Source: Burkholderiaceae bacterium | GTDB lineage: Bacteria; Pseudomonadota; Gammaproteobacteria; Burkholderiales; Burkholderiaceae_C | Assembly: GCA_017992055.1 (NCBI GenBank) | Contig: JAGOPK010000004.1 | Coordinates: forward strand, 112,165 to 176,164 | DNA length: 64,000 nucleotides | Reading direction: 5' to 3' | Part shown: positions 8,731 to 37,922 of the stretch, in pieces | Layout: every line of letters starts with the position of its first letter | Position numbering within the stretch: the stretch's first letter is position 1 | Notes under the pieces: model-generated | Database searches by the model: none | What the model was told of the DNA's origin: nothing | The model's input: the letters and a program-made list of their open reading frames with translations, nothing else | Program-made: the position numbers and the translations under genes

Positions 8731-10791
8731 TTATGTCGGCGCCGTCAGCCGGCCGGCGGCGTCCAGCAGGCGCCGGCTCAGTGCCTTGGGCGGGGCGCGC
8801 AGGGTGCGGACACCCGCGCCGGCCGCCGGCGCATAGCGCAGCCGCTCCAGCTCCAGCAGGGCCTGGGTCAGCTCGGCGGCGGCCGGCTGCGGCTGCAGCC
8901 GCGCCAACAGGCCAGCCAGGGTGCGTGGCCCATGGTGCGGCCGCGCCGCCAGGCCGGCGCGCTGCAGCGCCGCCACCAGGCGCTGCTGCAGGCGCTGCCA
9001 GGGGTCTTGCCGATGGCGGTCCCACCAGGCCCAGCCGGCCGCGGCCAGGGCCAGCGTGGACAGCGCGCCCACCAGCAGGCGCAGCAGCTGGGTCCAGTCC
9101 GGCAGATCGAAGCCCAGGCCCTTGAGCAGGCCCATCTGCTGGCTGCGCGACCAGCCCATGATCCATTGCGTCCAGCGGCTGTCCATCAGCTCCCAGGCCT
9201 GGCGCAGCTGGGCGGCCAGGGCCGGGCTCATGGTGCGCAGCGCGCCGGCCACGAAGCCCGGCCGCGGCGGCAGCGGGCGGCTGGCACGCACCCGCTCGGG
9301 CGCCACCGCGGCCGTGGGATCGGCGCGCAGCCAGCCCTCGCCGGCCTGCCAGAACTCGGCCCAGGCATGGGCATGGCTCTGGCGCACGACGCGAAAGCCG
9401 TCGGCATCGGGCGGCTCGGCGCCCTGGTAGCCGGTGACCACCCGCGCCGGCACGCCCATGCCGCGCATCATGACCACGAAGGCGGTGGCGAAATGCTCGC
9501 AAAAGCCCTCGCGGCCGTCGAACCAGAACTCGTCCACCGCCTCGCGGCCATACAGCCGCGGCGTCATGGTGTAGACGTAGTTGCCCTGGCGGATCTGCGC
9601 CTGCAGCATCGCCGCCAGCGTGCGCGCGTCGGCCTGCGGCAGCTGGCGCCGGGTCTGCTGGGCCCAGGCCAGCGCTCGGGGATTGAAGCCCACCGGCAGC
9701 CGTGTCAGCGCCAGCCGCTCCAGCGGCGCCAGGTCCAGGCCATGCTGGAAGCGGGTGTGGGCCTGGCCCTGCACGCGCAGCCGCTCGCTGATCAGCCGGC
9801 CGGCCTGCCATTGCAGGTCATGGCCCAGCCAGGGCCGGGTCTCGCCCTGGGGCTGCAGCTGCAGGCTGTCGGGCCGGGTGGCCTCCAGCAGCGGCAGCAC
9901 GGCCAGGCGGATGGGCTCGAACAGCACCTCGTAGCGCTGCGGCGCGCCGGCCAGCTGCAGGTCCAGGTCCTGCGGCGGCGGCCAGGCCGAGCGCAGGCCG
10001 GCCTGCCACTCCAGGCCGTCGAAGCGTGACAGCACCGGGCCGCGGAAGTACAGCTCCTGAGGCGGCGGCGCCGCACCGTCAAAGCGGATGCGGAAGGCGA
10101 TGCTGTCGTCGTTGGCCAGGTCGGCCACGCCGCCCATGCGCAGCGTGCCCGACAGGCCGGTGCGGCCCACGCTGTCCTGCGGCAGGCTCCACAGCGGGCC
10201 GAAACGCGGGAACAGCACAAACAGCAGGGCCATCAGCGGCAGGCCCCACAGCGCCGAGCGTGCGGCCAGGCGCGCCGCCTGCCACAGCGGCGGCCGGCCC
10301 ACCGGCATGTTGGACAGCACCAGGGCCGTCAGCAGGCCCCAGGTGGCGGCCAGCATGGCCAGCGTGATGCCCAGCGACTGCGAGTACAGCGCATTCGTCA
10401 GCACCAGGAAGAAGCCGAGGAAGAACACCACCATCGCATCGCGGCGCGCGCGCAGCTCCAGCGTTTTCAGCGCCAGCAGCAGCACCAGCAGCGTGAGCCC
10501 GGCCTCGCGGCCGAGCAGGGTGCGCTCGGTGGCCAGCGTGGCCGCCACCGCGCCCAGCAGCACCGCCAGCACCGGCCAGCGCCCGGGCAGGTTGCGACCG
10601 GCCAGCGCGATCTGCGTGCGCCAGCCCAGCACCACCGCGGTGAGCAGGCCGCACCACAGCGGCAGATGCCACAGGTGCGGCGCCACGGTCAGCGCAATCA
10701 CCGCCAGCTGGAACAGCGTGTCGCGGGTGTCGCGTGGCCAGTGCCGCCATTGCAGCCAGCCCGTGCGGCGCCGACCCGGTGTTGCCAGCAT
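8731..10791 (-). CDS. Membrane transglutaminase-domain protein (DUF3488, TgpA-like)
   Basis: Multi-TM N-terminus; GFCEHFA (Cys), HAWAE (His), RADPT (Asp) triad. Confidence 0.9.
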   Translation of the reverse strand: MLATPGRRRTGWLQWRHWPRDTRDTLFQLAVIALTVAPHLWHLPLWCGLLTAVVLGWRTQIALAGRNLPGRWPVLAVLLGAVAATLATERTLLGREAGLTLLVLLLALKTLELRARRDAMVVFFLGFFLVLTNALYSQSLGITLAMLAATWGLLTALVLSNMPVGRPPLWQAARLAARSALWGLPLMALLFVLFPRFGPLWSLPQDSVGRTGLSGTLRMGGVADLANDDSIAFRIRFDGAAPPPQELYFRGPVLSRFDGLEWQAGLRSAWPPPQDLDLQLAGAPQRYEVLFEPIRLAVLPLLEATRPDSLQLQPQGETRPWLGHDLQWQAGRLISERLRVQGQAHTRFQHGLDLAPLERLALTRLPVGFNPRALAWAQQTRRQLPQADARTLAAMLQAQIRQGNYVYTMTPRLYGREAVDEFWFDGREGFCEHFATAFVVMMRGMGVPARVVTGYQGAEPPDADGFRVVRQSHAHAWAEFWQAGEGWLRADPTAAVAPERVRASRPLPPRPGFVAGALRTMSPALAAQLRQAWELMDSRWTQWIMGWSRSQQMGLLKGLGFDLPDWTQLLRLLVGALSTLALAAAGWAWWDRHRQDPWQRLQQRLVAALQRAGLAARPHHGPRTLAGLLARLQPQPAAAELTQALLELERLRYAPAAGAGVRTLRAPPKALSRRLLDAAGRLTAPT

Positions 10792-10796
10792 GGACC

Positions 10797-11770
10797 TCAG
10801 CTCCAGTCGGCCAGCGCGTCCAGCGCGGCGCGGCGCTGGGCCTCGCCGCCGGCACGTGGCAGCTGCATGCCGGGCAGCTGCAGCGCATAGGCCAGGCCGG
10901 CAGCATCGGCGGCCAGCACCCAGGCGGCCAGGCGCGACAGCCGGGCCTCCGCATCGGCGCCCGAGCCACCACTGGCGGCCCAGTCCAGGCGCAGCGCCTG
11001 GGCGGCCGAGGTCTGCGTATCGCGGCTGACCAGCTCGCCGCTGCGCGCCACCTTCTTCCAGGCCACCTGGCGCAAGGCGTCGCCGCGGCGCCACGGCCGC
11101 ACGCCGTCGAACTCGCTGCCACCGGCGCGGCGCGGCGCGCTGGCCGCGGGCTCGCCGGCGGACTCGCCCAGTGGCAGCGGCGGCGCCGGCCGCTCGGGCG
11201 CCGGCCAGACACGCAGCGTGGCCGCCGGCCGCCACAGCGTCCAGGCGCGGAACAGGCCCAGCGGGAAATGCGTCTCCACCTGCAGCACCGGCACCGGCAG
11301 GCGGCCGCGGCGCGGCGGCGTCCAGCGCAGCCGGGCGACGGTGCTGCCCTGGGCCGGCACGTCGCAGAAGGCCATGCCGTGGCGGCCCGCCTCGTGCAGG
11401 GCCAGGCCCACCGCATGGCGGGCCTGGTCGGGATTGGCCAGCACCACCTCCAGCGTCGCCGGCTCGCCGGCAAACACCGGCGTCAGCGGCCGCAGGTGCA
11501 GCACCAGGCGGCGCAGGTTGGCATGGGTCTGGTGCATGGACACCAGGGCCGCACCGCCGAGCAGAAACGTCAGGCCATAGCCCAGGTTGAGCTGGTAGTT
11601 GATCGAGGCCAGCAGCATCACCAGCAAGGTGGCGGCAAAGCCCCAGCCGGCGCGCGTGGGCAGGATGTAGACGTTGCGCTGGGTCAGCGTCTGCTGTTCG
11701 CGCTCGGGCAGGCGCCTGAGCAGCCAGGCGTCCAGGCGCCGGCCCAGGGCCAGACCCGGCAGGCCGGGGT

Positions 11771-11774
<4 letters not shown>
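10797..11774 (-). CDS. DUF58 domain protein
   Basis: RNVYILPTRAG, FPLGLFRAW, EFDGVRPWRRGD; GTG start overlaps moxR stop. Confidence 0.9.
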
Positions 11775-12700
<926 letters not shown>

Positions 12701-12747
12701 GCGTGGCACCATACCGGAAACCGAAAGACTCCAAGGAGACACGCCGC

Positions 12748-13683
12748 ATGTCCACCGCGTTCTACAGCCATGCCGAGTGCCGTTTGCACGACATGGGCGC
12801 GGGCCACCCCGAATGCCCGCAGCGCCTGGACGCCATCTCCGACCAGCTGCTGGCCTCGGGCCTCGATCTGGCCCTGGCCCACCGCGAGGCGCCGCTGGCC
12901 ACGCTGGAGCAGCTGGAGCGCGCCCACACCGCGCATTACGTGACCCAGCTGAAGGACTTTCTGGAGCAGATCGCCGCCAGCGGCGAAAGCCGCCACCTCG
13001 ATCCCGACACCGTGGCCTGCCCCGGCACCTGGCGCGCCGCGCTGCGCTCGGCCGGCGCGGCCATCGCCGCCACCGAGGCGGTGGTCAAGGGCGAGGTCGA
13101 AAACGCCTTCTGCTCGGTGCGCCCGCCCGGCCACCATGCCACGCGCGACGAGACCATGGGCTTTTGCTTCTTCAACAACGTGGCCGTGGCCGCACGCCAT
13201 GCGCTGGACGTGCTGGGCCTGGAGCGCGTGGCCATCATCGACTTCGACGTGCACCACGGCAACGGCACCGAGGACATCATCGCCGGCGACGAACGGGTGC
13301 TGATGTGCAGCTTCTTCCAGCATCCGCTGTACCCGAACTGCGGCGCCGTGCCCAAGGGCACGAACATGGTCAATGTGCCGATCCCGCCCTACACCCGCGG
13401 CATGGAGGTGCGCGAGATCATCGACGTGATGTGGCTGCCGCGGCTGGAGGAGTTCCGCCCGCAGATGGTCTTCATCTCGGCCGGCTTCGACGCCCACCGC
13501 GAGGATGATCTCGGCCAGCTCGGCCTGGTGGAAGCCGACTACGAATGGATCACCCGGCGCATCAAGGACGTGGCCGACCGCCATGCCCAGGGCCGCATCG
13601 TCAGCGTGCTCGAAGGCGGCTATGTGCTCAGCGCGCTGGCGCGCAGCGTGGTGGCGCATTTGCGGGTGCTGGCGGATGTGTGA
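12748..13683 (+). CDS. Zn-dependent histone-deacetylase-family protein
   Basis: HPECPQRL, RPPGHHA, GFCFFNN, DFDVHHGNGT, SAGFDAH, LEGGY. Confidence 0.93.
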   Translation: MSTAFYSHAECRLHDMGAGHPECPQRLDAISDQLLASGLDLALAHREAPLATLEQLERAHTAHYVTQLKDFLEQIAASGESRHLDPDTVACPGTWRAALRSAGAAIAATEAVVKGEVENAFCSVRPPGHHATRDETMGFCFFNNVAVAARHALDVLGLERVAIIDFDVHHGNGTEDIIAGDERVLMCSFFQHPLYPNCGAVPKGTNMVNVPIPPYTRGMEVREIIDVMWLPRLEEFRPQMVFISAGFDAHREDDLGQLGLVEADYEWITRRIKDVADRHAQGRIVSVLEGGYVLSALARSVVAHLRVLADV

Positions 13684-13755
13684 TGTCTAGACAGGACTCG
13701 GCAAATGTCAACTGTGCAGACAGACTCGGGCGAGCACTGTGTGGCGACGCCAAGA

Positions 13756-13782
13756 AATGAGCGCTCCACATCAGCGCTCGTT
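13756..13782. repeat. Inverted repeat AATGAGCGCT-N7-AGCGCTCGTT overlapping the stop codon of the TIR-methyltransferase gene
   Basis: Read directly; 9/10 Watson-Crick pairs plus one T-G wobble. Confidence 0.75.
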
Positions 13783-15402
13783 GGGCGCCGTACTCGCCGT
13801 CCTCGGTGAGATCAAGTACAGGCCCAGGCCGAAGTTTGTGTTGGCATACCAGTTCACGACTTGCTCATCGACCACGCAGCCAGAATCTTCGACCATCGCC
13901 TCAATCCACGACGACAAGTATTTGCGCGTCAGATAGAGACGCACCGTCTCTCGGTCGTCGACGTCGACAAACTGCCCAGTCGGCACCCGCATGGACAATC
14001 GGTTGCCGGAACAGTTGGTATAGACGGTTCGCACCTCGATGAATCGATCCTTAACGACATGCGGCACGTACGACACCCAGGCGCGATTGGCTGTCAAGTT
14101 GGTGTGGTTCTCCAGGGCGCTGGTCGCGAAGTCGAAGAACGCCGGGATGTTCTGGTACTCGTGTGCCGCCGTTCTGGCGGCGGCTTCGTCGGCGGTTCGA
14201 GTGATTGCCACTTCCAACAGCAATCTGTCTTGGTCGCGAAGCAGCCCAGCCAAGGTTTTCAGCAATCGCGAATCGTCGTCGAAGTTGGCCAGCGTGTTGC
14301 CCAGCAGCGAATAGAGAACAGGCTGATCGCCCACAACCTGGGTTACAACGCCCCAGATCGCATGCGCGTTCTCGGCAGTTGAGAAGTCGATCTGCACCGG
14401 CAGTACACGCGAGCGCGGCAAGTTGCCGTTCTTCAGGCATTCGACGACGCCGACACGCAGCATGTCGCCACTCATGTCGACAGGAAAGAAATAGGCCTGG
14501 GGGTTGCCGGCGAGGATGCAACTGAGAACGACCCGGTCTTTCTCCCCGGTCCCGACGCCGAGGCTGACGTAGTTCTGTGGAGCTTTCAGCAGCTTTTTTA
14601 CCGTCGTCCAGCGTGCCTCGAAGGTCTGGATGCTCCACTTCATGACGAGGTACTTCTTGTCGGTACAGGCGCGGTCCCAAGCCAGCGTAGGCCCAATGCC
14701 CCAATAGGCGAATCCGGAAGGAAATCGTTTCCCGTTGCCATCGGGCGACGGGCCGAGGCTAAGTTCGCGTGCCAATTCGACCGCCTTGTCGGATTGGTCC
14801 TCGCCGATGAAGCACAGCGTCCAGCCCAGACTGGCGTGATCGATCGCCTTGGTAATCGACCTGTCCGCCAATATCGGCCCGGGGTCTTGTCTCTGGGTCT
14901 TGGCAACGACCTTTGCCGCGCCCTGTAGAGCACGCGCGAGCGCAATGAAGTTGCGCTTTGGCGGATAAGGCAGGTGGAGCATCTTCTGGATGCTGAGATA
15001 CAACTTTTCGAGTTGCTTCGGCTCATTCAGTACCAGTCCCTGTTGAGCCAGCAAGGGCATCTTCAGTTCATCCGGTTGCAAACCGCTGTGGCAGATCGGC
15101 ACCACCGGAATGTCCTTCAGGTACGCCGCTCCCGCCTCGAAGTTCACCCACGGCCGACTGATGGACTCACGGCTGCAGAGGACAAAAAGCATGTCTGCGC
15201 GGCGCAGTGCATCACAGATGGTCGCGAACCATTTGTCGCCGAGCGCGATGCTCTCAAGATCTGACGAGACGAAGAACTCGACCTGTCCGCCGAAATCTGC
15301 GGCGATCGCATCCTTCAAGCGCTGCGCAATGATGCCTTCCAGACTGATGTGGCTGATGAAGATGTTGAACTGCGACTTTTCGGGTTTGACTGGGCTCATC
15401 AT
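13771..15402 (-). CDS. TIR domain fused to an EgtD-like (Methyltransf_33-type) SAM-dependent methyltransferase
   Basis: N-term IFISH...GDKW...CSRESISRPWVNFEAGAA (TIR, catalytic Glu); C-term SLGVGTGEK, FPVDMS, IDF, LLGNTLANF, DRLLLEV; visibly more A+T than neighbours. Confidence 0.85.
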   Translation of the reverse strand: MMSPVKPEKSQFNIFISHISLEGIIAQRLKDAIAADFGGQVEFFVSSDLESIALGDKWFATICDALRRADMLFVLCSRESISRPWVNFEAGAAYLKDIPVVPICHSGLQPDELKMPLLAQQGLVLNEPKQLEKLYLSIQKMLHLPYPPKRNFIALARALQGAAKVVAKTQRQDPGPILADRSITKAIDHASLGWTLCFIGEDQSDKAVELARELSLGPSPDGNGKRFPSGFAYWGIGPTLAWDRACTDKKYLVMKWSIQTFEARWTTVKKLLKAPQNYVSLGVGTGEKDRVVLSCILAGNPQAYFFPVDMSGDMLRVGVVECLKNGNLPRSRVLPVQIDFSTAENAHAIWGVVTQVVGDQPVLYSLLGNTLANFDDDSRLLKTLAGLLRDQDRLLLEVAITRTADEAAARTAAHEYQNIPAFFDFATSALENHTNLTANRAWVSYVPHVVKDRFIEVRTVYTNCSGNRLSMRVPTGQFVDVDDRETVRLYLTRKYLSSWIEAMVEDSGCVVDEQVVNWYANTNFGLGLYLISPRTASTAPNER

Positions 15403-15475
15403 GTGTCCTGGAAAGACTGCCCCTTGAGCGCAGTGCGTCGGGATCACCAACCTGCTACCGCGCCTCGCCTCGGCC

Positions 15476-15498
15476 AATGACCTCTGTCAGCGGTCATT
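15476..15498. repeat. Inverted repeat AATGACCTCT-N3-AGCGGTCATT upstream of the TIR-methyltransferase gene
   Basis: Read directly; 9/10 pairs; arms resemble the 13756-13782 hairpin. Confidence 0.75.
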
Positions 15499-15504
15499 CG
15501 CCAA

Positions 15505-15533
15505 ATTCTGAGGTGTCGCGAATCGACTGTCCA
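15505..15533 (-). promoter_or_regulatory. Candidate sigma70 promoter TGGACA-N17-CAGAAT for the TIR-methyltransferase gene
   Basis: 5/6 and 4/6 match to TTGACA/TATAAT with 17-bp spacer. Confidence 0.4.
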
Positions 15534-15656
15534 ACCCCAAGACATGCCAGAGTCTGGCCGCGGCACCGTGATTCGGCAGGACGTCGACCGTGCGCGGCCC
15601 GTTGTCACAACGGATGCCATGGGTGCCGTGCGGCGTGCCCGGCGACAATCTCCGGC

Positions 15657-16979
15657 ATGACCGGTCTCGATACCTTCTCCCGCCTGTTCACCGATCTCTT
15701 GCGGCCCACGGCCCTGGCCGAGCTGGGCGTGCTGGCCGGCTGCCTGCTGCTGTCCTATCTGCTGGTGCGCGTGCTGCGGCCTGCCAGTGCCACGGCCACC
15801 AGCATCCTGTTCGGCGCACGCGGCTTTGACGGCGCGCTGTTCCCGCTGCTGGCCCTGGCCCTGGCGCTGGGCGCGCGGTTTGCGCTGCGTGGCCAGCAGG
15901 TGCCGATCGCGGTGTTCCACCTGGCCGTGCCGGTGCTGGCCAGCCTGGCCATCATCCGCACCGCGGTGCGCGTGCTGCATGCGGCCTTTCCGGCCTCCAC
16001 CGTGGTGCGCCTGGCCGAGCGCAGCTTCAGCTGGTTCGTCTGGATCGTGCTGGTGCTGTGGCTGACCGGCCTGCTGCCGCTGATCCAGGACGAGATGGAG
16101 GCGGTGCAGTGGAAGATCGGCGGCGCCACGGTGTCGCTGCGCAGCCTGGTCGAGGGCGCGCTGACCGCGGTGGCGGTGATGGTGGCCATGCTGTGGCTGT
16201 CGGCGGCCATCGAGTCGCGGCTGATGGCCGCCAGCGGCGTGCACCTGAGCGTGCGCAAGATCGCCTCCAACGCGGTGCGTGCCGGCCTGCTGCTGATCGG
16301 CCTGCTGCTGGCGCTGTCGGCCGCCGGCATCCCGCTGGGCGCGCTGGGCGTGATGGGCGGCGCACTCGGCGTGGGCATCGGCCTGGGCCTGCAGAAGCTG
16401 GCCGCCAACTATGTGAGCGGCTTCGTCATCCTGGCCGAGCGCAGCCTGCGCATCGGCGACATGGTGCGGGTCGACAACTTCGAGGGCCGCATCACCGACA
16501 TCAGCACGCGCTACACGGTGATCCGCGCGGCCAATGGCCGCGAGTCCATCGTGCCCAACGAGCTGATGATCACGCAGCGGGTGGAGAACTGCTCGTTCAC
16601 CGATCCCACGATGGCGCTGAGCACCATGGTGCAGGTGGCCTATGGCACGGCGGTCGAGGCGCTGATGCCGCAGCTGGTGGCGGCGATGGCCGGCGTGCCG
16701 CGGGTGCTGGCCGATCCGGCGCCGTCGGTGCAGCTCAGCAACTTTGCCGCCGACGGCCTGGAGCTGACCCTGGTGTTCTGGATCGCCGATCCCGAGAACG
16801 GCCAGGGCAATGTGCGCAGCGCGGTCAACCTGGCGGTGCTGCGCGCGCTGGATGCGGCCGGCATCGAGATCCCGTTCCCGCAGCGCGTGATGCACACGCT
16901 GGCCCCGCCTGCAGCACCCGCCGCACCCGCCACGATGGCCGCGGCGGCCCAGCCCGCTCAGCCCACCGCGGCCGACTGA
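15657..16979 (+). CDS. Mechanosensitive channel, MscS family
   Basis: GALGVGIGLGLQKLAANYVSG, RIGDMVRV, SIVPNELM, IEIPFPQR. Confidence 0.92.
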   Translation: MTGLDTFSRLFTDLLRPTALAELGVLAGCLLLSYLLVRVLRPASATATSILFGARGFDGALFPLLALALALGARFALRGQQVPIAVFHLAVPVLASLAIIRTAVRVLHAAFPASTVVRLAERSFSWFVWIVLVLWLTGLLPLIQDEMEAVQWKIGGATVSLRSLVEGALTAVAVMVAMLWLSAAIESRLMAASGVHLSVRKIASNAVRAGLLLIGLLLALSAAGIPLGALGVMGGALGVGIGLGLQKLAANYVSGFVILAERSLRIGDMVRVDNFEGRITDISTRYTVIRAANGRESIVPNELMITQRVENCSFTDPTMALSTMVQVAYGTAVEALMPQLVAAMAGVPRVLADPAPSVQLSNFAADGLELTLVFWIADPENGQGNVRSAVNLAVLRALDAAGIEIPFPQRVMHTLAPPAAPAAPATMAAAAQPAQPTAAD

Positions 16980-17710
16980 GCCGATTCCAGCGCCTGCAGG
17001 CAGGCCAGGGTGCGCGCCAGGCGCGGCCCGGGCTGGGCGTCCAGGGTCTGGCGCACCAGGCCCAGCAGGCCGTCGAAGGCCTCGGCCGGCATGCCCGGGC
17101 GGGCCCCGGCCAGCAGGGCCGCCAGGTCCTGCGGCGGCAGGGCGCGCGTGATCCACTGCAGCGACAGCGCCATCTCCTGCGGGTCCAGGCTGGCGATGAT
17201 GCGGCCGTCCAGGGCCAGCAGCTGGGCATCGGAGTAGTGCGCCCACAGCAGCGGGTTGTGCACGCGCTCCTCCTGCTCCATGTGCTCGAAGTTCTCGGCC
17301 ACGAACAGCGCCAGCAGGCGGTACAGCCGGCGTGCCAGCGCGCTGCGCTGGGCCGGCGCCACCTGGCGCAGCGCCTGCACCTGGTCTTCCAGCGAGGCCA
17401 GCGTGTCCAGGTGGCTGACGTGCTCGTCGGCGATGGGCCGGGCGCTGCCGGCCGCGGCGGCTTCCAGCGCCGGATGCAGGAACTCGTTTTCGTGCGCCAC
17501 ATGGCGGCGCAGCTGCAGGCACAGCAGCTCCACCTGGTCCAGCGTGGCCGCCATCGCGTCGGCATCGTCCACGTCCAGCCGGCCGACCTGGCCCAGCGTC
17601 TCGACCATGAACAGGCGCCAGGCGCGGTGGATGGCGCCGTAGATGTCGAAACGCGGGGCGCTGTCGGCGGGCGGCTGGGGCTGGCTGGCTTGGCGGGTCT
17701 GGGGGTTCAT
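16958..17710 (-). CDS. Hemerythrin-domain protein with canonical di-iron ligands
   Basis: IHRAW...HVAHENEF...EHVSH...HMEQEE pattern. Confidence 0.85.
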   Translation of the reverse strand: MNPQTRQASQPQPPADSAPRFDIYGAIHRAWRLFMVETLGQVGRLDVDDADAMAATLDQVELLCLQLRRHVAHENEFLHPALEAAAAGSARPIADEHVSHLDTLASLEDQVQALRQVAPAQRSALARRLYRLLALFVAENFEHMEQEERVHNPLLWAHYSDAQLLALDGRIIASLDPQEMALSLQWITRALPPQDLAALLAGARPGMPAEAFDGLLGLVRQTLDAQPGPRLARTLACLQALESAQSAAVG

Positions 17711-18342
17711 GGAGTCTCTCGCTTCAGGGTTGGGTGGGAAAGGCTTGTGATCTGCGGGCCGTGGGCATTGGCGCCCACGGCCTCCAGCGCCTGGGCCACG
17801 CGGCGCAGGGCCGCCGGGTCCAGGGCCTGGCGCATCCAGTGCAGCAGCGCGGCCTGCTCGTCCTCGTGCAGCCTCGCCAGCAGGCGTTGCAGCAGCAGCA
17901 GGGCAGCGCTGCCGGGATAGGCCAGGGCCAGGGCCGGCGCATCCAGCGCCTCCTGCTCGGCCATCTGGCGGCGCTGCTGGGCCACCAGCTCGCGGGCATG
18001 GCGGGTCAGGCGTTCCAGCAGCGGCCCGCGGCCGGCGGCCGGCGTGCGGGCCAGCTGGCGCAGCTCCAGCATCAGGTCGTCCAGCCGGGCGCAGCTGGCG
18101 TCGCGGGCCAGGCCGCTGCGCCAGCTGGAGCCGGGCCAGCGCGCCTCCAGCGCCGCATGCAGCACCTCGGACTCGCAGCGCATCTGGCTGCGCAGCAGGT
18201 CGGCCAGGGCCTGCCAGCGGGCCAGCAGCGGCTGCGGATCGTGCTCGGCACGCGCCGCCTGCAGGTCCGCCAGGCCCTGGGCCATGGCGCTGCGCAACGC
18301 GCGGTGCGGCAGGCGGTAGAGGTCGCCGGCGTCGTTGCGCAT
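17707..18342 (-). CDS. Hemerythrin-like paralog, most ligands lost (alternative start 18360)
   Basis: DLYRLPHRALR aligns to DIYGAIHRAWR; HxxxE motifs replaced by QMRCESE and QMAEQE; stop overlaps next ATG. Confidence 0.65.
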   Translation of the reverse strand: MRNDAGDLYRLPHRALRSAMAQGLADLQAARAEHDPQPLLARWQALADLLRSQMRCESEVLHAALEARWPGSSWRSGLARDASCARLDDLMLELRQLARTPAAGRGPLLERLTRHARELVAQQRRQMAEQEALDAPALALAYPGSAALLLLQRLLARLHEDEQAALLHWMRQALDPAALRRVAQALEAVGANAHGPQITSLSHPTLKRETP

Positions 18343-18346
18343 GGCC

Positions 18347-19258
18347 TCAGCTGCCGCCATGGCGCGCCGGCAGCGACGACAGGTACAGGTGCAGGGCCGC
18401 GGCATCGGTGTCGCTGAGCTGGCGCAGCGACTCGAAGGGCATCACCGCGATGCTGCTGCCGTCGGCGCGGCGGCCGCTGCGCAGCATGGCCTGCAGGGCC
18501 TGGGCATCGTGGTAGCGCGTGGCCAGCACACCGTCGGCGCCGGGACGCAGATCCGGCGCGGCCGGCCACGACGGCGGTGCGCCCGGGATGCGCCCGCCGG
18601 CCAGCTGGGCGCCATGGCAGCCCACGCACATGGCCGCCACATAGCGCCCATGCTCGATGCTCACCGCCTCGGGCACCGGCTGGGCCGGGGCGCGGCCATG
18701 GTCGATCAGGTCGTGGGCATCGGGGATCTGACCCAGGCCGTAGAGCACGCGCACCGGCAGCGGCAGGCGGATCTCGGCCGCCAGGCCATCGACCGCCGGC
18801 AGCGCACGCACATGGGCCACCAGGGCGCCCAGGTCGGCATCGGTCAGGCCCTGGTAGTCCTGCGAGGGCATCACGCGCACCACGCGGCCGTCGCGCTTGA
18901 CACCGTGGCGCAGCAGGCGGTCCCAGTCGGCCAGGGTGTAGCCCTGGGTGGCGCTGCCACGGCCGGCGGTGAGGTTGGGGCCGCTCAGGCGCAGGCCGCC
19001 TTCGTCGACGAAGTTGCGGCCGGCGCCCTGGGCGCCGTGGCAGTCGACGCAGCCGCGCGTGGCATACAGGTAGCGGCCACGTTCCAGGCTGGCGGCATCG
19101 GTGGGCAGGGCCAGTTTGCGGGCCTCGGCCATGGCGAGGTCCGGGCGGCGTTGCTGGCGCTGCTCGGCCAGCACCAGGCCGGTGGCCACCGTGGCCGCGG
19201 CCAGCGTCGCCAGGCCGGCCAGCGTGACCAGGCCGCGGCGTATCCAGGGGGAGGGCAT
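18347..19258 (-). CDS. Dihaem class I cytochrome c with N-terminal anchor/signal
   Basis: CVDCH and CVGCH, distal Met in VMPS and VMPF; hydrophobic N-terminus after RR. Confidence 0.9.
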   Translation of the reverse strand: MPSPWIRRGLVTLAGLATLAAATVATGLVLAEQRQQRRPDLAMAEARKLALPTDAASLERGRYLYATRGCVDCHGAQGAGRNFVDEGGLRLSGPNLTAGRGSATQGYTLADWDRLLRHGVKRDGRVVRVMPSQDYQGLTDADLGALVAHVRALPAVDGLAAEIRLPLPVRVLYGLGQIPDAHDLIDHGRAPAQPVPEAVSIEHGRYVAAMCVGCHGAQLAGGRIPGAPPSWPAAPDLRPGADGVLATRYHDAQALQAMLRSGRRADGSSIAVMPFESLRQLSDTDAAALHLYLSSLPARHGGS

Positions 19259-19296
19259 GGAGGTTCTCCGTGGGGGATGTTGGCGGGGATGCGGGC

Positions 19297-20061
19297 TCAG
19301 GCCCGCGCCTGCAGCGCGGCACTGGCCGCGGCCAGCTGCGGCCAGCGCGGGCCGACGCGGCCACGCACGGCGATCGCCAGCTGCACCCAGGCCTCGGGCG
19401 CCAGGCCGTCCTGCAGCTCGTGCAGCATCAGCGCCAGCTCGTCGGTGTTCAGCGCATCGGCCATCAGCAGGGCCAGGTCCAGGCGCTCCCAGGGCGGCAG
19501 CAGGGCCTGGGCACGGCGCGCCAGCTGGCGGCGCTGCGCGGCATCGAACAGCACGTCGCGCAGCGGCGCCAGCAACTGCTCCTCGCGCGCCATCATCTGC
19601 AGCTGCTGGGCCACCTGCTGCTCGAAGGCCCGCTGCAGGCGCTGCAGCGCCGCGGCGGCCTGGGCGGGCTGGGCCTGCATCAGCTCATGCGCCAGGCGCT
19701 GGATGCCGGCCGTGCGGGCCAGGTCGTCGAGGTGGTCCTGCAGCGCGCCATCGACCAGGCCGGGCTGGCGCGCGGCCAGGGCCGGCAGCCAGACCTCGCA
19801 GTCGGCGCGGCGGTGACCGTCCAGCACATCCAGCAGGCGTTGCAGGCGCTGCATGGCGCTGCGCACCGACGCCGCATCGGAAACATCCAGCCGGCCCAGG
19901 GTCTGCAGCTGGCGCGACAGCGCATGGCGCAGCGCCTTGTGCGCCGCGGCGCAGGGGTCCCAGGCGCTGCGGGCTGGGTGGGCTGCTGGGTTGGCGGCTG
20001 GGTGGGTGGCCGGGTGGGCGGCAGACGGGCTGGGGCGGACGGCGTCGAGCAGGGCGGTCAT
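19297..20061 (-). CDS. Hemerythrin-like paralog, partly degenerate
   Basis: AHKALR, LGRLDVSD (cf. VGRLDVDD), HRRADCE, DHLDD, MMAREE. Confidence 0.7.
   Translation of the reverse strand: MTALLDAVRPSPSAAHPATHPAANPAAHPARSAWDPCAAAHKALRHALSRQLQTLGRLDVSDAASVRSAMQRLQRLLDVLDGHRRADCEVWLPALAARQPGLVDGALQDHLDDLARTAGIQRLAHELMQAQPAQAAAALQRLQRAFEQQVAQQLQMMAREEQLLAPLRDVLFDAAQRRQLARRAQALLPPWERLDLALLMADALNTDELALMLHELQDGLAPEAWVQLAIAVRGRVGPRWPQLAAASAALQARA
19973..20020. repeat. 4 x 12-bp imperfect tandem repeat encoding (A/T)(H/N)PA units
   Basis: gctgggtgggct / gctgggttggcg / gctgggtgggtg / gccgggtgggcg. Confidence 0.8.
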
Positions 20062-20210: not shown

Positions 20211-22967
20211 TCAGCCGCGCGCCGCCTCGTCCTGCGCAAACCACCAGGCCGCGGCCTGGCCGCGGCTGGTCAGGCCCAGCTTGGCCAGCACATTGGCCAC
20301 ATGGCGCTTGACGGTGTGCGGGCTCAGGTCGAAGGCGCGGGCGATCAGCTTGTTGCTGTCGCCGGCGGCGATGCGCTCCAGCACCTCGCGCTCGCGTGGG
20401 CTCAGCACCTCACCGGGCAGGGCCTGGGGTGCGGCCGACAGCGCAGGCTGGGGCCGCACCAGGCTCCGCACGACCGCAGCGCCGGCCTCGCTGGCATCGC
20501 TGGCATCGGTGACGCCATCCACCTCATCGCCCGCTGCGGCCGGCAGGATCGGCTCCAGCCGCCAGCCCACCCGTGCGGCCCAGCGCCGCAGCGGCTCGGC
20601 CAGGGCCTCGGGCAGGTGGGGCTGCAGCCGCGCCTGCAGCGCCGGCGAGGCCAGCTGCTGCAGCGCGCTGCCGCCGAACAGCAGGCCGCCGGGGCCGCCT
20701 TCGGCCAGCGCCCGCTGCAGCGCCGGCGCCAGCACCGCGGCGGCGCCGGCGGCATCGTCCTCGGCCACCAGCAGCGCATGGGCCAGGCGCACCCGCAGCT
20801 CGGCGGCCTGGCCCAGCTGGTCGATCTGCGCCTCCTGCGGCAGCAGCGCACGCCAGCCGGCGATGGCCGCCGCGGGCCGGCCCTCCAGCCAGTGCAGCTG
20901 GGCCGGCAGCGGGCTCAGTGCGGCCAGGCGCTCGCCGGCGGCGCGGGCCTGCTCGGGCAGCAGGGCCGGTTCCAGCCGGTCCAGGCAGGCGCGCAGCAGC
21001 GGGCCATGGTCGCAGATGGCTGCGGCGCGCGCCGCCAGCCTCAGCCCATGCCAGGCCGACCAGGCGCTGCCCAGGGCCCCCGGCTGCTGCAGCGCCGGCT
21101 GCACCAGCGATTCCACCGTCGCCCGCCGGCCCCGCAGCGCCAGCATCAGCGCCTGCTGCTGGCGCACGGTGCGGCGCACATTGGGCGGATCGCCGACCCA
21201 GCGGCAGTCGGCATCGGCCCGGTCCATCAGCGCATCGGCGGCCTCCAGCCGGCCGTCCCAGGTGGCCAGCCAGGCCTCGATCAGCAGGCTGGCGGCGCTG
21301 AGCGCGGTGGGCCGGTCGGCCTCGGCCAGGCGGCGCACGCCCTCGGCATGGCGCTGCAGCGCACCGCGCGTGCCGGGCAGGCCGATGAAGCGCAGGATGG
21401 GCGTGGCCATGTACCAGTACTCGGGCGCGCGCAGCCGCTCCAGCGTGTCCACGGTCTCGTCCAGCACGGGGCCGATGCGGGCCATGGAGCCCATGTCCAG
21501 CGCATGCCAGCTGGAGGCGACCAGCACCAGCACGCGCGTGGCGTCGCTCATGCGCTCGCGGCGCAGCGGTCCCAGCACCGCGCCGCTGGCATCGACCTGG
21601 CCCAGCGCGTTCAGCGCCAGCGCCAGCAGACCCTGGGCCTGCTGGCGCTGGGCCTCGTCCTGGCGCGACTCGGCCAGGGCCAGTGCGCGCCGCGCGGCCT
21701 CGGCCATGGCCGGGAAGTCCCAGCGCGACCAGGCCAGCAGGGCCTTGATGCACTGCAGCGCCGACGAGCTCTGGCGCAGCGCCGGCGCAAAGCCGTCGAG
21801 CAGCTTGTGCACGGTCTGCACCGCGCCCTCGGTCAGCCAGCGCGCGGCGCGCGCCGCCAGCAGCGACTTGGCCGCCGCCTCGTCGCCGGCCTGCAGCAGC
21901 AGGGCCACGCGGCGCTGGGCGTCGGGCTCGGCCGCGGCCGCGCGCTGGCGCAAGGGCAGCAGGTCCAGCGGGCGCTGGCGCTCCAGCTGCTGCTGCAGCG
22001 CGGCGCGGAACAGGTCGTGCAGGCGCAGCGTGCGCTGGGCACCGTCGACGCTGGTGGCGAACAGGCCCAGGCGCTCGACCTCGTCGAGCAGCAAGGCCGC
22101 ATGGGCCTGGCCGGTGACGGCCGCGCAGCGCGCCGCGTCCAGCTCGGGCAGCACCGAGGTGTCGAGCAGAAAGTCGCGCAGCTCGGGGCGCAGCCGGTCC
22201 AGCACCTCGCTGGCCAGGAAATCGAACACATGGCGGTCCACCGCGCCGGCCGGCATCACGCCGTTGCGGCTGGCGTTCAGCGCCAGGCGCAGGCCGGCCG
22301 GCCAGCCCTCGGTGCGCGCATGCAGGCTGAGCACCGCCTCGGCGTCCACGCCATGGCGCTCGCCCAGGGCCTGGGCCTCGGCCGCAGAAAAGCCCAGCTC
22401 GGCCTGGCGGAACTCGGCCAGTTCACCCTGCACGCGCAGCCGCGCCAGCGGCAGGGCCGCCGGGTCGTGGCGGCTGGCCAGCACCAGGGTCCAGCGCTGC
22501 CCCAGGCGTTCGATCAGATGCGCCAGCAGGGCCAGCGCCGGGCCGTCGTGCAGGCGGTGCAGGTCGTCCAGCACGATCACGCCGCGCTCCAGGTCGCAGG
22601 CCTCCAGCGTGTTCACCAGCTCGGTGGCGATCTGCGCCGGCGGCGCGCCGGCCTCGGCCATGGCCACCAGGGCCTCGGGCGCGAGGCGCCAGGGCGGGTC
22701 CTGCGGCTCCAGCGCGGCGATCAGGCATTCCAGCAGGCGCGCCAGGTCGTCGTCCTCGTCCAGCGACACCCAGGCCAGCGGCGGCGCGTTGTCGGCCGCC
22801 AGGGCCTCGGCCAGCGCCGTGGTCTTGCCGAAGCCGGCCGGCGCGCTGAGCAACACCAGGCGGTGCTGGCCCAGCGCGACACGCAGCGCGGCCTGCAGCG
22901 CCGGGCGCTGGATCTGCTGCTGCGGCCGCAGCCGCGGGCACTGGATCTTGGTGCGGGCAAAGGACAT
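20211..22967 (-). CDS. MalT-like STAND ATPase / LuxR HTH transcriptional regulator (ORF is open to 23324)
   Basis: APAGFGKTT Walker A, VIVLDDLH Walker B, C-terminal LSPREREVL...TVKRHVANVLAKLG. Confidence 0.9.
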   Translation of the reverse strand: MSFARTKIQCPRLRPQQQIQRPALQAALRVALGQHRLVLLSAPAGFGKTTALAEALAADNAPPLAWVSLDEDDDLARLLECLIAALEPQDPPWRLAPEALVAMAEAGAPPAQIATELVNTLEACDLERGVIVLDDLHRLHDGPALALLAHLIERLGQRWTLVLASRHDPAALPLARLRVQGELAEFRQAELGFSAAEAQALGERHGVDAEAVLSLHARTEGWPAGLRLALNASRNGVMPAGAVDRHVFDFLASEVLDRLRPELRDFLLDTSVLPELDAARCAAVTGQAHAALLLDEVERLGLFATSVDGAQRTLRLHDLFRAALQQQLERQRPLDLLPLRQRAAAAEPDAQRRVALLLQAGDEAAAKSLLAARAARWLTEGAVQTVHKLLDGFAPALRQSSSALQCIKALLAWSRWDFPAMAEAARRALALAESRQDEAQRQQAQGLLALALNALGQVDASGAVLGPLRRERMSDATRVLVLVASSWHALDMGSMARIGPVLDETVDTLERLRAPEYWYMATPILRFIGLPGTRGALQRHAEGVRRLAEADRPTALSAASLLIEAWLATWDGRLEAADALMDRADADCRWVGDPPNVRRTVRQQQALMLALRGRRATVESLVQPALQQPGALGSAWSAWHGLRLAARAAAICDHGPLLRACLDRLEPALLPEQARAAGERLAALSPLPAQLHWLEGRPAAAIAGWRALLPQEAQIDQLGQAAELRVRLAHALLVAEDDAAGAAAVLAPALQRALAEGGPGGLLFGGSALQQLASPALQARLQPHLPEALAEPLRRWAARVGWRLEPILPAAAGDEVDGVTDASDASEAGAAVVRSLVRPQPALSAAPQALPGEVLSPREREVLERIAAGDSNKLIARAFDLSPHTVKRHVANVLAKLGLTSRGQAAAWWFAQDEAARG

Positions 22968-23430
22968 CGCGGAGACGGCGGCACGGCGTGCCAAGGCAGC
23001 CGGAGGGGCCGGTGGGGCCGGTGGGACGGCCGCCGGAGGCGGCCGCAGCAGCGGCGATGCTACGACCAGCGCCGGCCTGTGCCAGGCCGTGTGCGGCAGC
23101 GCGTCGATGGCGAAGGCGGGGCTGGAAGGCATGCGCGGCATTCTGCGCAGGCGCGGGCGGCCGGTCAGCCGGCGTGCGACGAAACGCTGCCAGAGCCGAT
23201 GACCTGCAGGCCTGGGCTGCTGCCATGGCTCTTGTGGGCTATGCCGTGGGTGATGACAGCACCGGACGACGGCGGCACAGTGGCCGCCTGTCCTGCCACC
23301 CAGCACCCATGATGAGCGCCCCACCGCCGCGACACCGCCAGCTTGGCTGGCACACCTGCGCCCGCTGGGCGCCGCTGATCGTGACCGTCAGCGCGCTGGC
23401 GGCGGCCTGGCCCGAGCTGGGCCGCGAGCT

Positions 23431-36391: not shown

Positions 36392-37126
36392 ATGCGACAA
36401 ATCTTCCTGGACACCGAAACCACCGGCCTCGAAGCCAACAACGGCGACCGCCTGGTCGAGATCGGCTGCATCGAGATGGTCAACCGCCGGCTCACCGGCA
36501 ACACCCTGCACCTGTACCTGAACCCCGAGCGCAAGGGCAACGAAGAGGCGATCAAGGTCCACGGCCTGACCGATGACTTCCTGGCCGACAAGCCGAAGTT
36601 CGCCGAGGTCGCGCCGCAGGTGCTGGACTTCATCCGCGGCGCCGAGGTCATCATCCACAACGCGGCCTTCGACGTGGGCTTCCTCGATGCCGAGTTCGGC
36701 CGGCTGAAGCTGGGCCGCACCGCGGACCTGGTCGGCAAGGTCACCGACACGCTGCTGATGGCACGCGAGATGTTCCCGGGCAAGGCCAACTCGCTGGACG
36801 CGCTGTGCCGCCGGCTGGAGGTCGACAACAAGCACCGCACCTTCCACGGCGCCCTGCTCGATGCCGGCCTGCTGGCCGAGGTCTACATCCGCCTGACGCG
36901 CGGCCAGGACTCGCTGGTGATCGGTGACGACGAGGCCCATGGCAGCACCGGCCATGCCGGCCTGCAGTCCAGCGGCGCGGTGGACCTGAGCGGATTTGCG
37001 CTGGCCGTGATCGAGCCCACGGCCGAGGAAGCCGCCGCCCACGAGGCCCTGCTGGCCGACCTGGACAAGGCCAGCGGCGGCAAGACCTTGTGGCGGAACT
37101 TGGCAACTGAAAAAGCTGTGGCATAA
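36392..37126 (+). CDS. dnaQ: DNA polymerase III epsilon subunit
   Basis: LDTETTG, IHNAAFD, HGALLDA. Confidence 0.95.
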   Translation: MRQIFLDTETTGLEANNGDRLVEIGCIEMVNRRLTGNTLHLYLNPERKGNEEAIKVHGLTDDFLADKPKFAEVAPQVLDFIRGAEVIIHNAAFDVGFLDAEFGRLKLGRTADLVGKVTDTLLMAREMFPGKANSLDALCRRLEVDNKHRTFHGALLDAGLLAEVYIRLTRGQDSLVIGDDEAHGSTGHAGLQSSGAVDLSGFALAVIEPTAEEAAAHEALLADLDKASGGKTLWRNLATEKAVA

Positions 37127-37127
37127 T
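37100..37127 (+). promoter_or_regulatory. Sigma70 promoter TTGGCA-N16-CATAAT (extended -10 TG) for the tRNA transcript
   Basis: Close consensus match overlapping the dnaQ stop. Confidence 0.6.
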
Positions 37128-37136
37128 CCGAGCTTC

Positions 37137-37207
37137 GCTGTTGCACAGACCCTTCGGTGCAACAGCCGATCCGGAAGACGGACAGACCTGATCCCAGATA
37201 GGGCAGG
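37137..37207 (+). other. Structured leader (three hairpins) upstream of tRNA-Val
   Basis: GCTGTTGCAC/GTGCAACAGC 10-bp stem; TCCG-GAAGA-CGGA; CCTG-AT-CCC-AGATA-GGG-CAGG. Confidence 0.45.
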
Positions 37208-37219
37208 CCAGCGAATTCC

Positions 37220-37294
37220 GGGCGGTTAGCTCAGCGGTAGAGCACTGCCTTCACACGGCAGGGGTCGCAGGTTCGAACCCTGCACCGCCCACCA
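37220..37294 (+). tRNA. tRNA-Val (anticodon CAC)
   Basis: Cloverleaf: GGGCGGT acceptor, D arm AGCTCAGCGGTAGAGC, CTGCC-TTCACAC-GGCAG, GGTTCGAACCC, encoded CCA. Confidence 0.96.
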
Positions 37295-37320
37295 AGATTC
37301 CTCATGTGAATCAACGACAT

Positions 37321-37344
37321 ACGGCACCTTCGGGTGCCGTTTTC
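37321..37344 (+). terminator. Intrinsic terminator after tRNA-Val
   Basis: ACGGCACC-TTCG-GGTGCCGT followed by TTT. Confidence 0.8.
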
Positions 37345-37373
37345 GTTTGTGGTGTGGGAAAAGTGGGGAAGAG

Positions 37374-37518
37374 CACCATCGCCGTCTGGATGTCCACAAG
37401 GACCGCATCGACATCGCCACCGCAGATGAGGGCCGAGTTGGCGAGGTGCGGTACGGGGGCCGGATCGGCGGCGATCTGGCGTCGCTGGACACGGCGTTGC
37501 GCCGCTTGATCTCGCGGG
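37374..37518 (+). pseudogene. IS110-family transposase N-terminal fragment
   Basis: LDVHKDRIDIATADEGRVGEVRYGGRIGGDLASLDTALRRL resembles the IS110 DEDD start; no start codon, truncated. Confidence 0.75.
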
Positions 37519-37787
37519 CCTCGAAAGCTGCCTCGGGCGCAGAAGACATGGATGGCGGTGGCCTTCTCCCGGAACGGGCGTTCCGGGCGCTGAACTGGGT
37601 GTGGCCGAAGGAAAGCCCACATCCGGCGATGTGTTGCGTGACATCGCAGTCGACCGTTCGCCGTTCGTCGGGCTCGCCGGTCGATCGCGCGCCGAACTCC
37701 AAGAGGACGGAGGGACGCACATGGCCCGTACCTTCGCCGAAGGCCTCGTCGTCGATGAAGGTCTGGGACACCCTGACGCCGCAGTAG
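37517..37787 (-). pseudogene. AbiEii/AbiGii-type nucleotidyltransferase internal fragment with two frameshifts
   Basis: GTGHVRPSVLLEFGARSTGEP..CD, then PDVGFPSATP, then RPERPFREKATAIHVFC, each in a different frame. Confidence 0.75.
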
Positions 37788-37922
37788 CAGGGCGTGCTCA
37801 AGGAATGCGGGGTCCAGAGCCGGGACGCCGTTCGCAAGGCCAACCGCGAGAAGGAGGGCGCCAGCCTGGCCTTTCTGAAAGCGCAGGGGATGGCGGTCAA
37901 TGAGATCTCGGGTCCGGACGCC
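37788..37922 (+). pseudogene. TRAP substrate-binding protein (DctP) C-terminal fragment
   Basis: VLKECGVQSRDAVRKANREKEGASLAFLKAQGMAVNEIS resembles the DctP C-terminal helix. Confidence 0.55.

Follow-up and report, generated by a model that had tools for sequence, protein, structure and literature searches.

The 64-kb stretch of DNA analysed here (contig JAGOPK010000004.1 of a Burkholderiaceae bacterium; hereafter the window) carries a gene on its minus strand (13771..15402) in which an N-terminal TIR domain is fused to an S-adenosylmethionine (SAM)-dependent methyltransferase module with the EgtD fold. The gene sits alone in a foreign cassette. Relatives of its methyltransferase core are found in other bacteria, fused to various effector domains or, in their usual form, paired with a small membrane protein in a two-gene operon. 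With moderate confidence, we regard the gene as the one-chain version of a conflict family that is undescribed and horizontally mobile, and whose most likely role would be anti-phage abortive infection. All positions are given as coordinates of the window.

The open reading frame (ORF) spans 13771-15477 on the minus strand and is the longest at the site; from the ATG at 15402 to the stop TGA (13771-13773) it encodes a protein of 543 amino acids. The TIR domain occupies residues ~12-125 (15028..15369, minus strand), as delimited by Pfam TIR_2 and the secondary structure of the model, and belongs to a subfamily with the pattern FISH...PWxNFEAGA...CHSG. Pfam TIR_2 (PF13676) matches residues 14-107 with 37.5 bits against a cut-off of 28, and the TIR-TM model of PADLOC matches the domain at 5.5e-8. 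Across 49 relatives of the TIR subfamily, residues F15, S17, H18, G55, W58, W85, E89, G91, P102 and C104 are 100% conserved. Among the structures in the PDB, the subfamily profile matched that of the NADase AbTIR best, with PWVNFEaGA opposite DWTNYELDG. In this alignment E89 (codon 15136..15138, minus strand), the predicted catalytic Glu of the WxxxE motif W85-V-N-F-E89, aligns with the Glu of the AbTIR WTNYE motif, the catalytic E208. Invariant E89 and W85, together with the AbTIR alignment, predict that the TIR domain is NADase-competent.

The same TIR subfamily heads many unrelated C-terminal regions, often near mobile-element genes, and we therefore see it as a promiscuous effector module. 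The tblastn search of plasmids found relatives of the TIR domain only, and zero methyltransferase fusions. On the 2.56-Mb replicon of Paraburkholderia caribensis MBA4, a protein of 358 amino acids (L001:5998-7074) has a TIR domain of the same subfamily (40% identity) and an unrelated C-terminal region; it is encoded between a serine recombinase and an IS66-family transposase, in a stretch that is unannotated in PLSDB. Another TIR protein of the subfamily is encoded by the 4.6-kb plasmid pRHBSTW-00138_8 of Klebsiella quasipneumoniae (L002:2983-3732), a small plasmid of mobilisable type with seven annotated genes, where the TIR gene lies beside rep and a CcdAB pair. In the window protein the TIR domain is followed by a helical linker of two long helices in the model (residues 128-172; 14887..15021, minus strand), and by hinge residues 173-179, which are of low confidence and disordered in the AlphaFold2 model.

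The methyltransferase module covers residues 183-535 (13798..14856, minus strand), as assigned by Pfam, Foldseek and profile comparison, and was matched by Pfam Methyltransf_33 (PF10017) over residues 225-513 with 49.2 bits against a cut-off of 23. The AlphaFold2 model of the fusion, built with an alignment of 113 sequences, superseded a single-sequence model with a predicted local distance difference test score (pLDDT) of 36. It has a mean pLDDT of 92.4 and a predicted template modelling score of 0.75, and consists of the TIR alpha/beta domain, the helices and hinge, and a two-lobed methyltransferase. The top Foldseek matches in the PDB were EgtD chains only (E=2e-18 to 8e-16, template modelling score on target 0.70-0.79), with generic class I methyltransferases as runner-up at ~1e-9. 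The family profile matched EgtD in the PDB at 1e-9, and the fold search of BFVD returned generic methyltransferase matches only. SAM motif I is present as SLGVGTGEK (residues 280-288; 14539..14565, minus strand) and motif IV as GNTLANF (residues 368-374; 14281..14301, minus strand), where LLGNTLANF stands opposite FLGSTIGNL of EgtD. Both domains had already been recognised in the sequence-only reading, with the intact TIR Glu at the same codon and the same two methyltransferase motifs, and the Pfam matches above cut-off, the position of E89 within WVNFE and the EgtD structural match bear this out.

The module shares with EgtD (PDB 4PIM, 4UY6, 7SCF) the two-lobed fold, SAM motifs I-IV and the equivalents of the pocket residues. 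In the alignment, Y39, F47, Y56, N166 and S284 of EgtD correspond to Y233, W242, Y251, N373 and T492 of the window protein. In contrast to EgtD, the family possesses a signature of its own, R493-K494-Y495 (13918..13926, minus strand), which the profile alignment places opposite C285-K286-F287, and its module is fused to or paired with effector domains. E282 of EgtD, which specifies histidine, corresponds to Y490, as had been supposed by eye from TEVSCKF opposite (L)YLTRKY. Position 490 is variable in the family (Y in 42 representatives, L in 13, D in 4, F in 3, and others). Sequence identity to EgtD is 18-20%. The EgtD equivalog TIGR03438 scores 39.9 bits against a cut-off of 290.9 (relatives 31-45 bits), and the EasF model TIGR03439 scores 16.8 bits against 205.55. 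The genes egtA/B/C/E were found neither near the window gene nor among the top families at the homolog loci. We rejected an identity as EgtD ortholog on the equivalog score, the missing His-specifying Glu and the absence of linkage to ergothioneine genes, and an identity as EasF on a score far under the cut-off.

Relatives of the window protein are automatically annotated as L-histidine N(alpha)-methyltransferase. These annotations, the EgtD-like fold and motifs, and the metabolic genes often found next to family members would suit an ordinary amino-acid betaine methyltransferase of the EgtD/EasF type, carrying a regulatory or inert TIR. We consider this very unlikely. The scores lie far below both equivalog cut-offs, and neither egtA/B/C/E nor other pathway genes are linked. 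Moreover, the gene belongs to a foreign cassette that varies between strains, and neither fusion to TIR, CHAT, trypsin, PNP and EAD11 domains nor pairing with a two-transmembrane (2-TM) protein has a metabolic rationale.

The HMMER scan of 1.84 billion representatives gave 3544 matches, and the best 150 of the 3544 comprised TIR-only proteins and ~100 proteins carrying the methyltransferase module at 30-56% identity. The module forms a distinct family of at least 75 clusters at 50% identity, hosted by Actinomycetes, cyanobacteria, Solirubrobacterales, Ktedonobacteria and few Burkholderiales. Conservation was computed over 75 full-length representatives of these clusters. Residues conserved in at least 96% of them include G282, G284, G286, K288, D289, D309 (motif II), D339 (motif III), G368-N369-T370, N373, D392, E397, E415-Y416, T434 and S/T492-R493-K494-Y495, as well as the pocket aromatics Y233, W242 and Y251. 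Among these, G282 and G284 are invariant, G286, K288 and R493 are kept in 74 of the 75 representatives, N373 and K494 in 73, and Y495 in 72. The window protein has the full core signature (GxGxGxKD, (P)VDxS, DF(S), LLGNTxANF, ExA, AxxEY, (S/T)RKY), of which every element is kept by at least 96% of the 75 representatives. Conservation of the SAM and pocket positions at this level indicates that the module is under selection as a ligand-binding enzyme. It speaks for a working enzyme, or failing that for a protein that must bind SAM and substrate, and for a single conserved ligand other than histidine. This ligand probably resembles an amino acid whose side chain is hydrophobic or aromatic.

In approximately half of the representatives the module stands alone, in a protein of 370-400 amino acids, and 42 carry extensions of at least 80 amino acids. 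Nineteen of these 42 contain TIR_2, which is N- or C-terminal and belongs to several TIR subtypes. The other Pfam partners are CHAT (three), helix-turn-helix (HTH) domains (two to three), and EAD11, PNP_UDP_1, Metallophos and Trypsin_2 (one each). Two further representatives possess N-terminal transmembrane (TM) helices. PADLOC has effector models that match three of these partners, namely PNP (CBASS PN effector), CHAT (chat) and trypsin (RT-protease). The TIR fusion is a derived form, a minority of the sampled genome loci and the commonest fused form. The 2-TM protein of the operon form (see below), TIR, CHAT, trypsin, PNP, phosphoesterase and the EAD adaptor are all of kinds known as executioners in immunity and conflict systems of bacteria. 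A constant core with swappable effectors, encoded in an operon or fused at either end, is the signature of a conflict system built from a sensor or enzyme plus an effector.

The sequence-only reading had offered two ideas on how the domains work together. The first, gating of the TIR by the methyltransferase, agrees with the comparative results, since one core is combined there with many alternative effector domains. The second was that the methyltransferase methylates the product of the TIR. That product could be nicotinamide, ADP-ribose (ADPR) or an amino-acid-ADPR conjugate such as the His-ADPR of type II Thoeris, and its methylation would yield a signal or a block on phage NAD+ salvage. 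Such joint chemistry would agree with the presence of both domains in one chain, with the binding of free aromatic amino acids by the EgtD fold, and with TIR as the most frequent fused partner. However, most family members lack a TIR and are paired with the 2-TM protein or joined to membrane, protease, phosphorylase or phosphoesterase partners instead, so that the core cannot depend on TIR products and this chemistry is unlikely as a general logic. In addition, the His-specifying E282 of EgtD is not conserved, and a Macro or SLOG receiver is absent from the nearby genes. We judge this alternative highly improbable.

The two-gene form was found by a genome scan that covered one genome per GTDB species and used a core-only alignment as seed, which gave 55 loci; the same scan seeded with the window protein alone returned no matches. 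The loci come from Micromonospora, Streptomyces, Actinophytocola, Actinokineospora, Frankia, filamentous cyanobacteria and Solirubrobacterales, and include a Ktedonobacteraceae metagenome-assembled genome (MAG), a Methanoperedens fragment and one Burkholderiaceae MAG. In 44 of the 55, a stand-alone methyltransferase gene is followed by a co-oriented gene for a protein of 190-225 amino acids, overlapping or within ~90 bp. Six Solirubrobacterales loci have a divergent homolog of this 2-TM protein in the same layout. The usual form of the family is therefore a two-gene operon of methyltransferase and 2-TM protein (at least 50 of the 55 loci).

In the 2-TM partner, hydrophobic helices at the N-terminus precede a conserved cytosolic domain, which is helical and ~130-170 amino acids long. 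The hydropathy scan calls one or two helices, and two were judged by eye. Members of the partner family (190-250 amino acids; L005:11131-11709, L009:11173-11751, L020:11143-11775, L047:11013-11750 and ~46 further loci) share, after the TM helices, an AERWAA..RE helix followed by VYPRL..SA.D.A..SG and LH.WR....FN.RL.L.E. They have zero matches in Pfam, PADLOC and NCBIfam and are annotated as hypothetical proteins. In two cyanobacterial pairs the G+C content at third codon positions (GC3) is lower than in the neighbours (L009:9956-11751, 0.35/0.27 against ~0.5; L012:9965-11787, 0.26/0.17 against ~0.3), which suggests horizontal acquisition there too.

Upon infection, the methyltransferase could make a diffusible methylated small molecule, e.g. 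an N-methylated amino-acid derivative, that activates the partner, comparable to the signals of CBASS, Pycsar and Thoeris. The near-invariant SAM motifs and the EgtD-like pocket imply that the module is a genuine catalyst for a single conserved substrate. Furthermore, the commonest form, a minimal enzyme plus a 2-TM protein, is like the minimal CBASS and Pycsar operons, and the conserved cytosolic helical domain of the partner could bind a ligand. Nonetheless, the fused TIR, CHAT, trypsin and PNP effectors share no SAVED, CARF, cNMP, SLOG or Macro sensor domain, and where a generator and an effector are fused directly, with the effector at either end of the chain, allosteric control in cis is the simpler explanation. 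As the fused effectors have no common ligand-receiver domain, control in cis is the simplest reading and a diffusible methylated signal its main alternative, which we hold to be rather unlikely.

In the mechanism that we propose, the constant component would be the EgtD-fold, SAM-binding and probably catalytically competent module, which would sense or switch. The killing module coupled to it would be interchangeable, and in the window gene it would be the TIR domain. In the resting state the methyltransferase module would keep the TIR inactive. Once infection changes how the pocket for SAM and the amino-acid-like substrate is occupied, or how fast it turns over, the conformation or oligomeric state of the module would be altered, the TIR domains would assemble, and E89-dependent cleavage of NAD+ would deplete NAD+ and stop the infected cell. 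A more specific proposal, possible but doubtful, is that the EgtD-like module may represent a new immune sensor of methylation metabolism, either as a guard of the SAM pool or as the maker of a methylated second messenger. As a guard, it would fire the effector once SAM-degrading enzymes of the phage empty the cofactor site, and as a messenger synthase it would convert an infection-specific amino-acid-like metabolite into the methylated second messenger.

The gene lies in an inserted cassette of 1971 bp (13684..15654), recognised by an empty-site contig and by its G+C contrast, and present or absent depending on the strain. The cassette contains the TIR-methyltransferase gene alone with its own promoter-like and terminator-like sites. 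It has a G+C content of 59.1% against 72.9% and 74.6% in the flanks, the window as a whole has ~71% G+C, and its lowest kilobase is 14001-15000 (59.4%). GC3 of the fusion gene is 0.75, compared to 0.89-0.93 in the neighbours. The TIR and methyltransferase halves have similar GC3 (0.735 and 0.761, respectively), indicating that the fusion is older than the acquisition. The cassette is foreign and the gene was horizontally acquired. In the cassette we found no other credible ORFs, recombinase or repeats, and the Rfam search gave zero RNA families, SAM riboswitch included. At its ends, neither a convincing target-site duplication nor terminal inverted repeats nor flanking repeats were found.

The cassette separates two plus-strand backbone genes, one of the histone deacetylase family (12703..13683; Pfam Hist_deacetyl, 3e-87) and one encoding an MscS-family mechanosensitive channel (15657..16979; Pfam MS_channel_2nd and MS_channel_3rd). 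A contig of 521 nt with a depth of 9.7, from groundwater metagenome run X27, represents the empty site. It matches 13300-13683 with 5 mismatches (98.7% identity), skips 1971 nt and joins 13683 directly to 15655, with no letters shared at the joint. Run X27 also has low-depth contigs identical to the insert, so that both alleles coexist in it. The higher A+T content of the gene and its interruption of two co-oriented genes, both pointed out before any comparison was made, agree with these results. Since 13683 is joined to 15655, the empty-site strain has the deacetylase stop, 2 nt and then the MscS ATG, and with this spacing the two genes are probably co-transcribed. The insertion parts them and must either provide a promoter for MscS or disturb the existing one. 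The joint was not reproduced in runs X18, X19, X34 and X33, over the same narrower stretch.

Upstream of the gene, a sigma-70-like promoter match, TGGACA-17-CAGAAT (15505..15533, minus strand), was identified by its resemblance to the consensus, and a Shine-Dalgarno-like AGGA (15406..15409, minus strand) was read from the sequence 4-5 nt 5' of the ATG. The sequence scan also detected a terminator-like hairpin with a weak T-tail over the stop codon (13759..13779, minus strand). A variant of the protein with a difference of one amino acid (P0001, called from the second Met) occurs with the same flanks in 28 metagenome samples, whereas exact look-ups of the window protein and of the deacetylase gave zero matches. 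Four small contigs of soil metatranscriptome run X15, within 13710-15486, differ from the gene by 0-2 mismatches and are weak evidence of possible transcription in situ.

Several observations weigh against an anti-phage role or against parts of the evidence for it. Outside the pair the genomic context is not conserved, with 140 neighbours in 24 loci matching 166 Pfam families, and the defence-island signal is weak, as these neighbours are mostly metabolic, transport and regulatory genes. Integrases are present in three of the 24 neighbourhoods, and matches to PADLOC among the neighbours are few (JetA in two loci, mad2 in four, and kinases). The neighbours of the closest fused relatives vary, including an aconitase (L003, a TIR fusion), a NACHT protein (P0002), VapBC (P0007) and an integrase (P0006); this variety, the integrases and JetA speak for mobility. 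Neighbourhood analysis, proposed in the sequence-only reading as a check, showed mostly ordinary surroundings of the homologs, with defence or integrase neighbours only occasionally. The pair is syntenic across ~10 Micromonospora species, which could fit a lineage-specific housekeeping role. Strict conservation of a catalytic pocket is, moreover, seen more typically in enzymes that act on a fixed substrate than in sensors under arms-race pressure. The search of 2.9 M viral contigs (IMG/VR) gave zero relatives, and hence there is no signal of carriage by phage-borne mobile elements. Finally, the empty site is represented by one contig from one run, and the metatranscriptome contigs could come from contaminating DNA.

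Some of these points would also agree with a role outside immunity, as a module for regulated cell death, kin conflict or development in multicellular-type bacteria, or as a self-stabilising addiction cassette similar to toxin-antitoxin systems. The taxonomic bias of the family to Actinomycetes, filamentous cyanobacteria, Ktedonobacteria and Solirubrobacterales, the synteny of the pair in Micromonospora, and the effector set of TIR, CHAT, trypsin, PNP and EAD11 are in line with such a role. These effectors are mentioned for conflict systems of multicellular bacteria (PMC8195603), where there is no mention of such a methyltransferase. Nevertheless, the window host and the bacterium with the TIR fusion L003 belong to Burkholderiales-like unicellular lineages, in which the gene was horizontally acquired, and a system of this kind could serve in phage defence as well. 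We regard an exclusively non-immune role as unlikely.

The architecture was also compared with known defence systems. At E<=0.1, PADLOC v2.0.0 could not detect any match for the stand-alone cores or the 2-TM partners, and with the window protein at E<=1 the TIR part alone matches. No name for the core, the 2-TM partner or the fusion was found in PADLOC v2.0.0, NCBIfam release 20 (June 2026), the source annotations or the searchable literature, and a very recent description is possible. The earlier statement that this architecture was not known from any characterised system agrees with these searches. Thoeris was rejected as an assignment, as the ThsB_TIR model gives 16.7 bits against a cut-off of 21.2, the PADLOC ThsB models reach E 2e-3 or worse, and there is no ThsA-like neighbour. 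The Retron_TIR model scores 20.9 against 600, on the TIR part only. Retron-TIR, CBASS, Pycsar and SPARTA were likewise rejected, since reverse transcriptase, CD-NTase, cyclase and short pAgo are absent from the cassette and its flanks.

The window gene resembles the single-chain and two-gene TIR abortive-infection systems (Thoeris ThsB, TIR-TM of PADLOC, retron-TIR and AbTIR-type NADases) in its TIR_2 domain with the S..W...E motif. In contrast to them, it has no ThsA, reverse transcriptase, pAgo, STING or TM segment, and its partner is a methyltransferase, which is absent from those systems. Similar to CBASS, Pycsar and the STAND/NLR-like systems with EAD adaptors, the family combines one core with alternative effectors as operon partners or fusions; however, the core here is an EgtD-fold methyltransferase and not a cyclase/CD-NTase or STAND NTPase, and cyclic-nucleotide sensor domains are absent. 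In the PrrC/EcoprrI guard system, an effector is kept latent under a partner containing a SAM-dependent methyltransferase and is freed when infection perturbs that partner. The family described here has no homology to that system, its methyltransferase is of the small-molecule (EgtD) type and not a DNA methyltransferase, and a guard role for it is speculative. We rate the kind of system as already known, among the effector-swapping abortive-infection and conflict systems, and its core as new and without precedent there.

Further genes were annotated elsewhere in the window. On the minus strand at 8731-12742 there are genes for a MoxR-type AAA_3 ATPase (11771-12742), an ORF of at most 464 amino acids without Pfam match (10797-12191) and a TgpA-like transglutaminase membrane protein (8731-11235), which we read as a typical backbone MoxR / DUF58-like / TgpA operon. 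The region 16958-20061, also on the minus strand, encodes two hemerythrin-HHE proteins (16958-17710 and 19297-20061), an unassigned, paralog-like ORF of 232 amino acids (17707-18405) and a di-haem cytochrome c (18347-19258). The same strand also has an ORF of 1037 amino acids (20211-23324) with a C-terminal LuxR/GerE-type HTH recognised by eye (…REREVLERIAAGDSNKLIARAFDLSPHTVKRHVANVLAKLG), comparable to large ATP-dependent regulators of MalT type. The single tRNA of the window is a tRNA-Val (CAC) at 37220-37294 on the plus strand, within a kilobase of lower G+C content (37001-38000, 64%), and further G+C dips are located at 24-25 kb, 28-30 kb, 46-47 kb and 51-53 kb.

Should the family prove to be an immune system, it would add a new class of core, a small-molecule methyltransferase of EgtD type that controls TIR, caspase-like, protease and membrane effectors. 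If the proposal of a sensor or messenger synthase holds, small-molecule methyl transfer would join the chemistries of immune signalling, which are so far dominated by nucleotides, and the window gene would be a self-contained, TIR-armed version. The gene is a convenient entry point to the family, as a self-contained cassette of 2 kb with a natural empty-site control and with clear point mutants, namely E89 for the TIR domain, G282, G284 and D309 for SAM binding, and N373 for catalysis. Recognition of the family would correct the common mis-annotation as L-histidine N(alpha)-methyltransferase, and would give a partner and a context to the hypothetical 2-TM protein of Actinomycetes and cyanobacteria.

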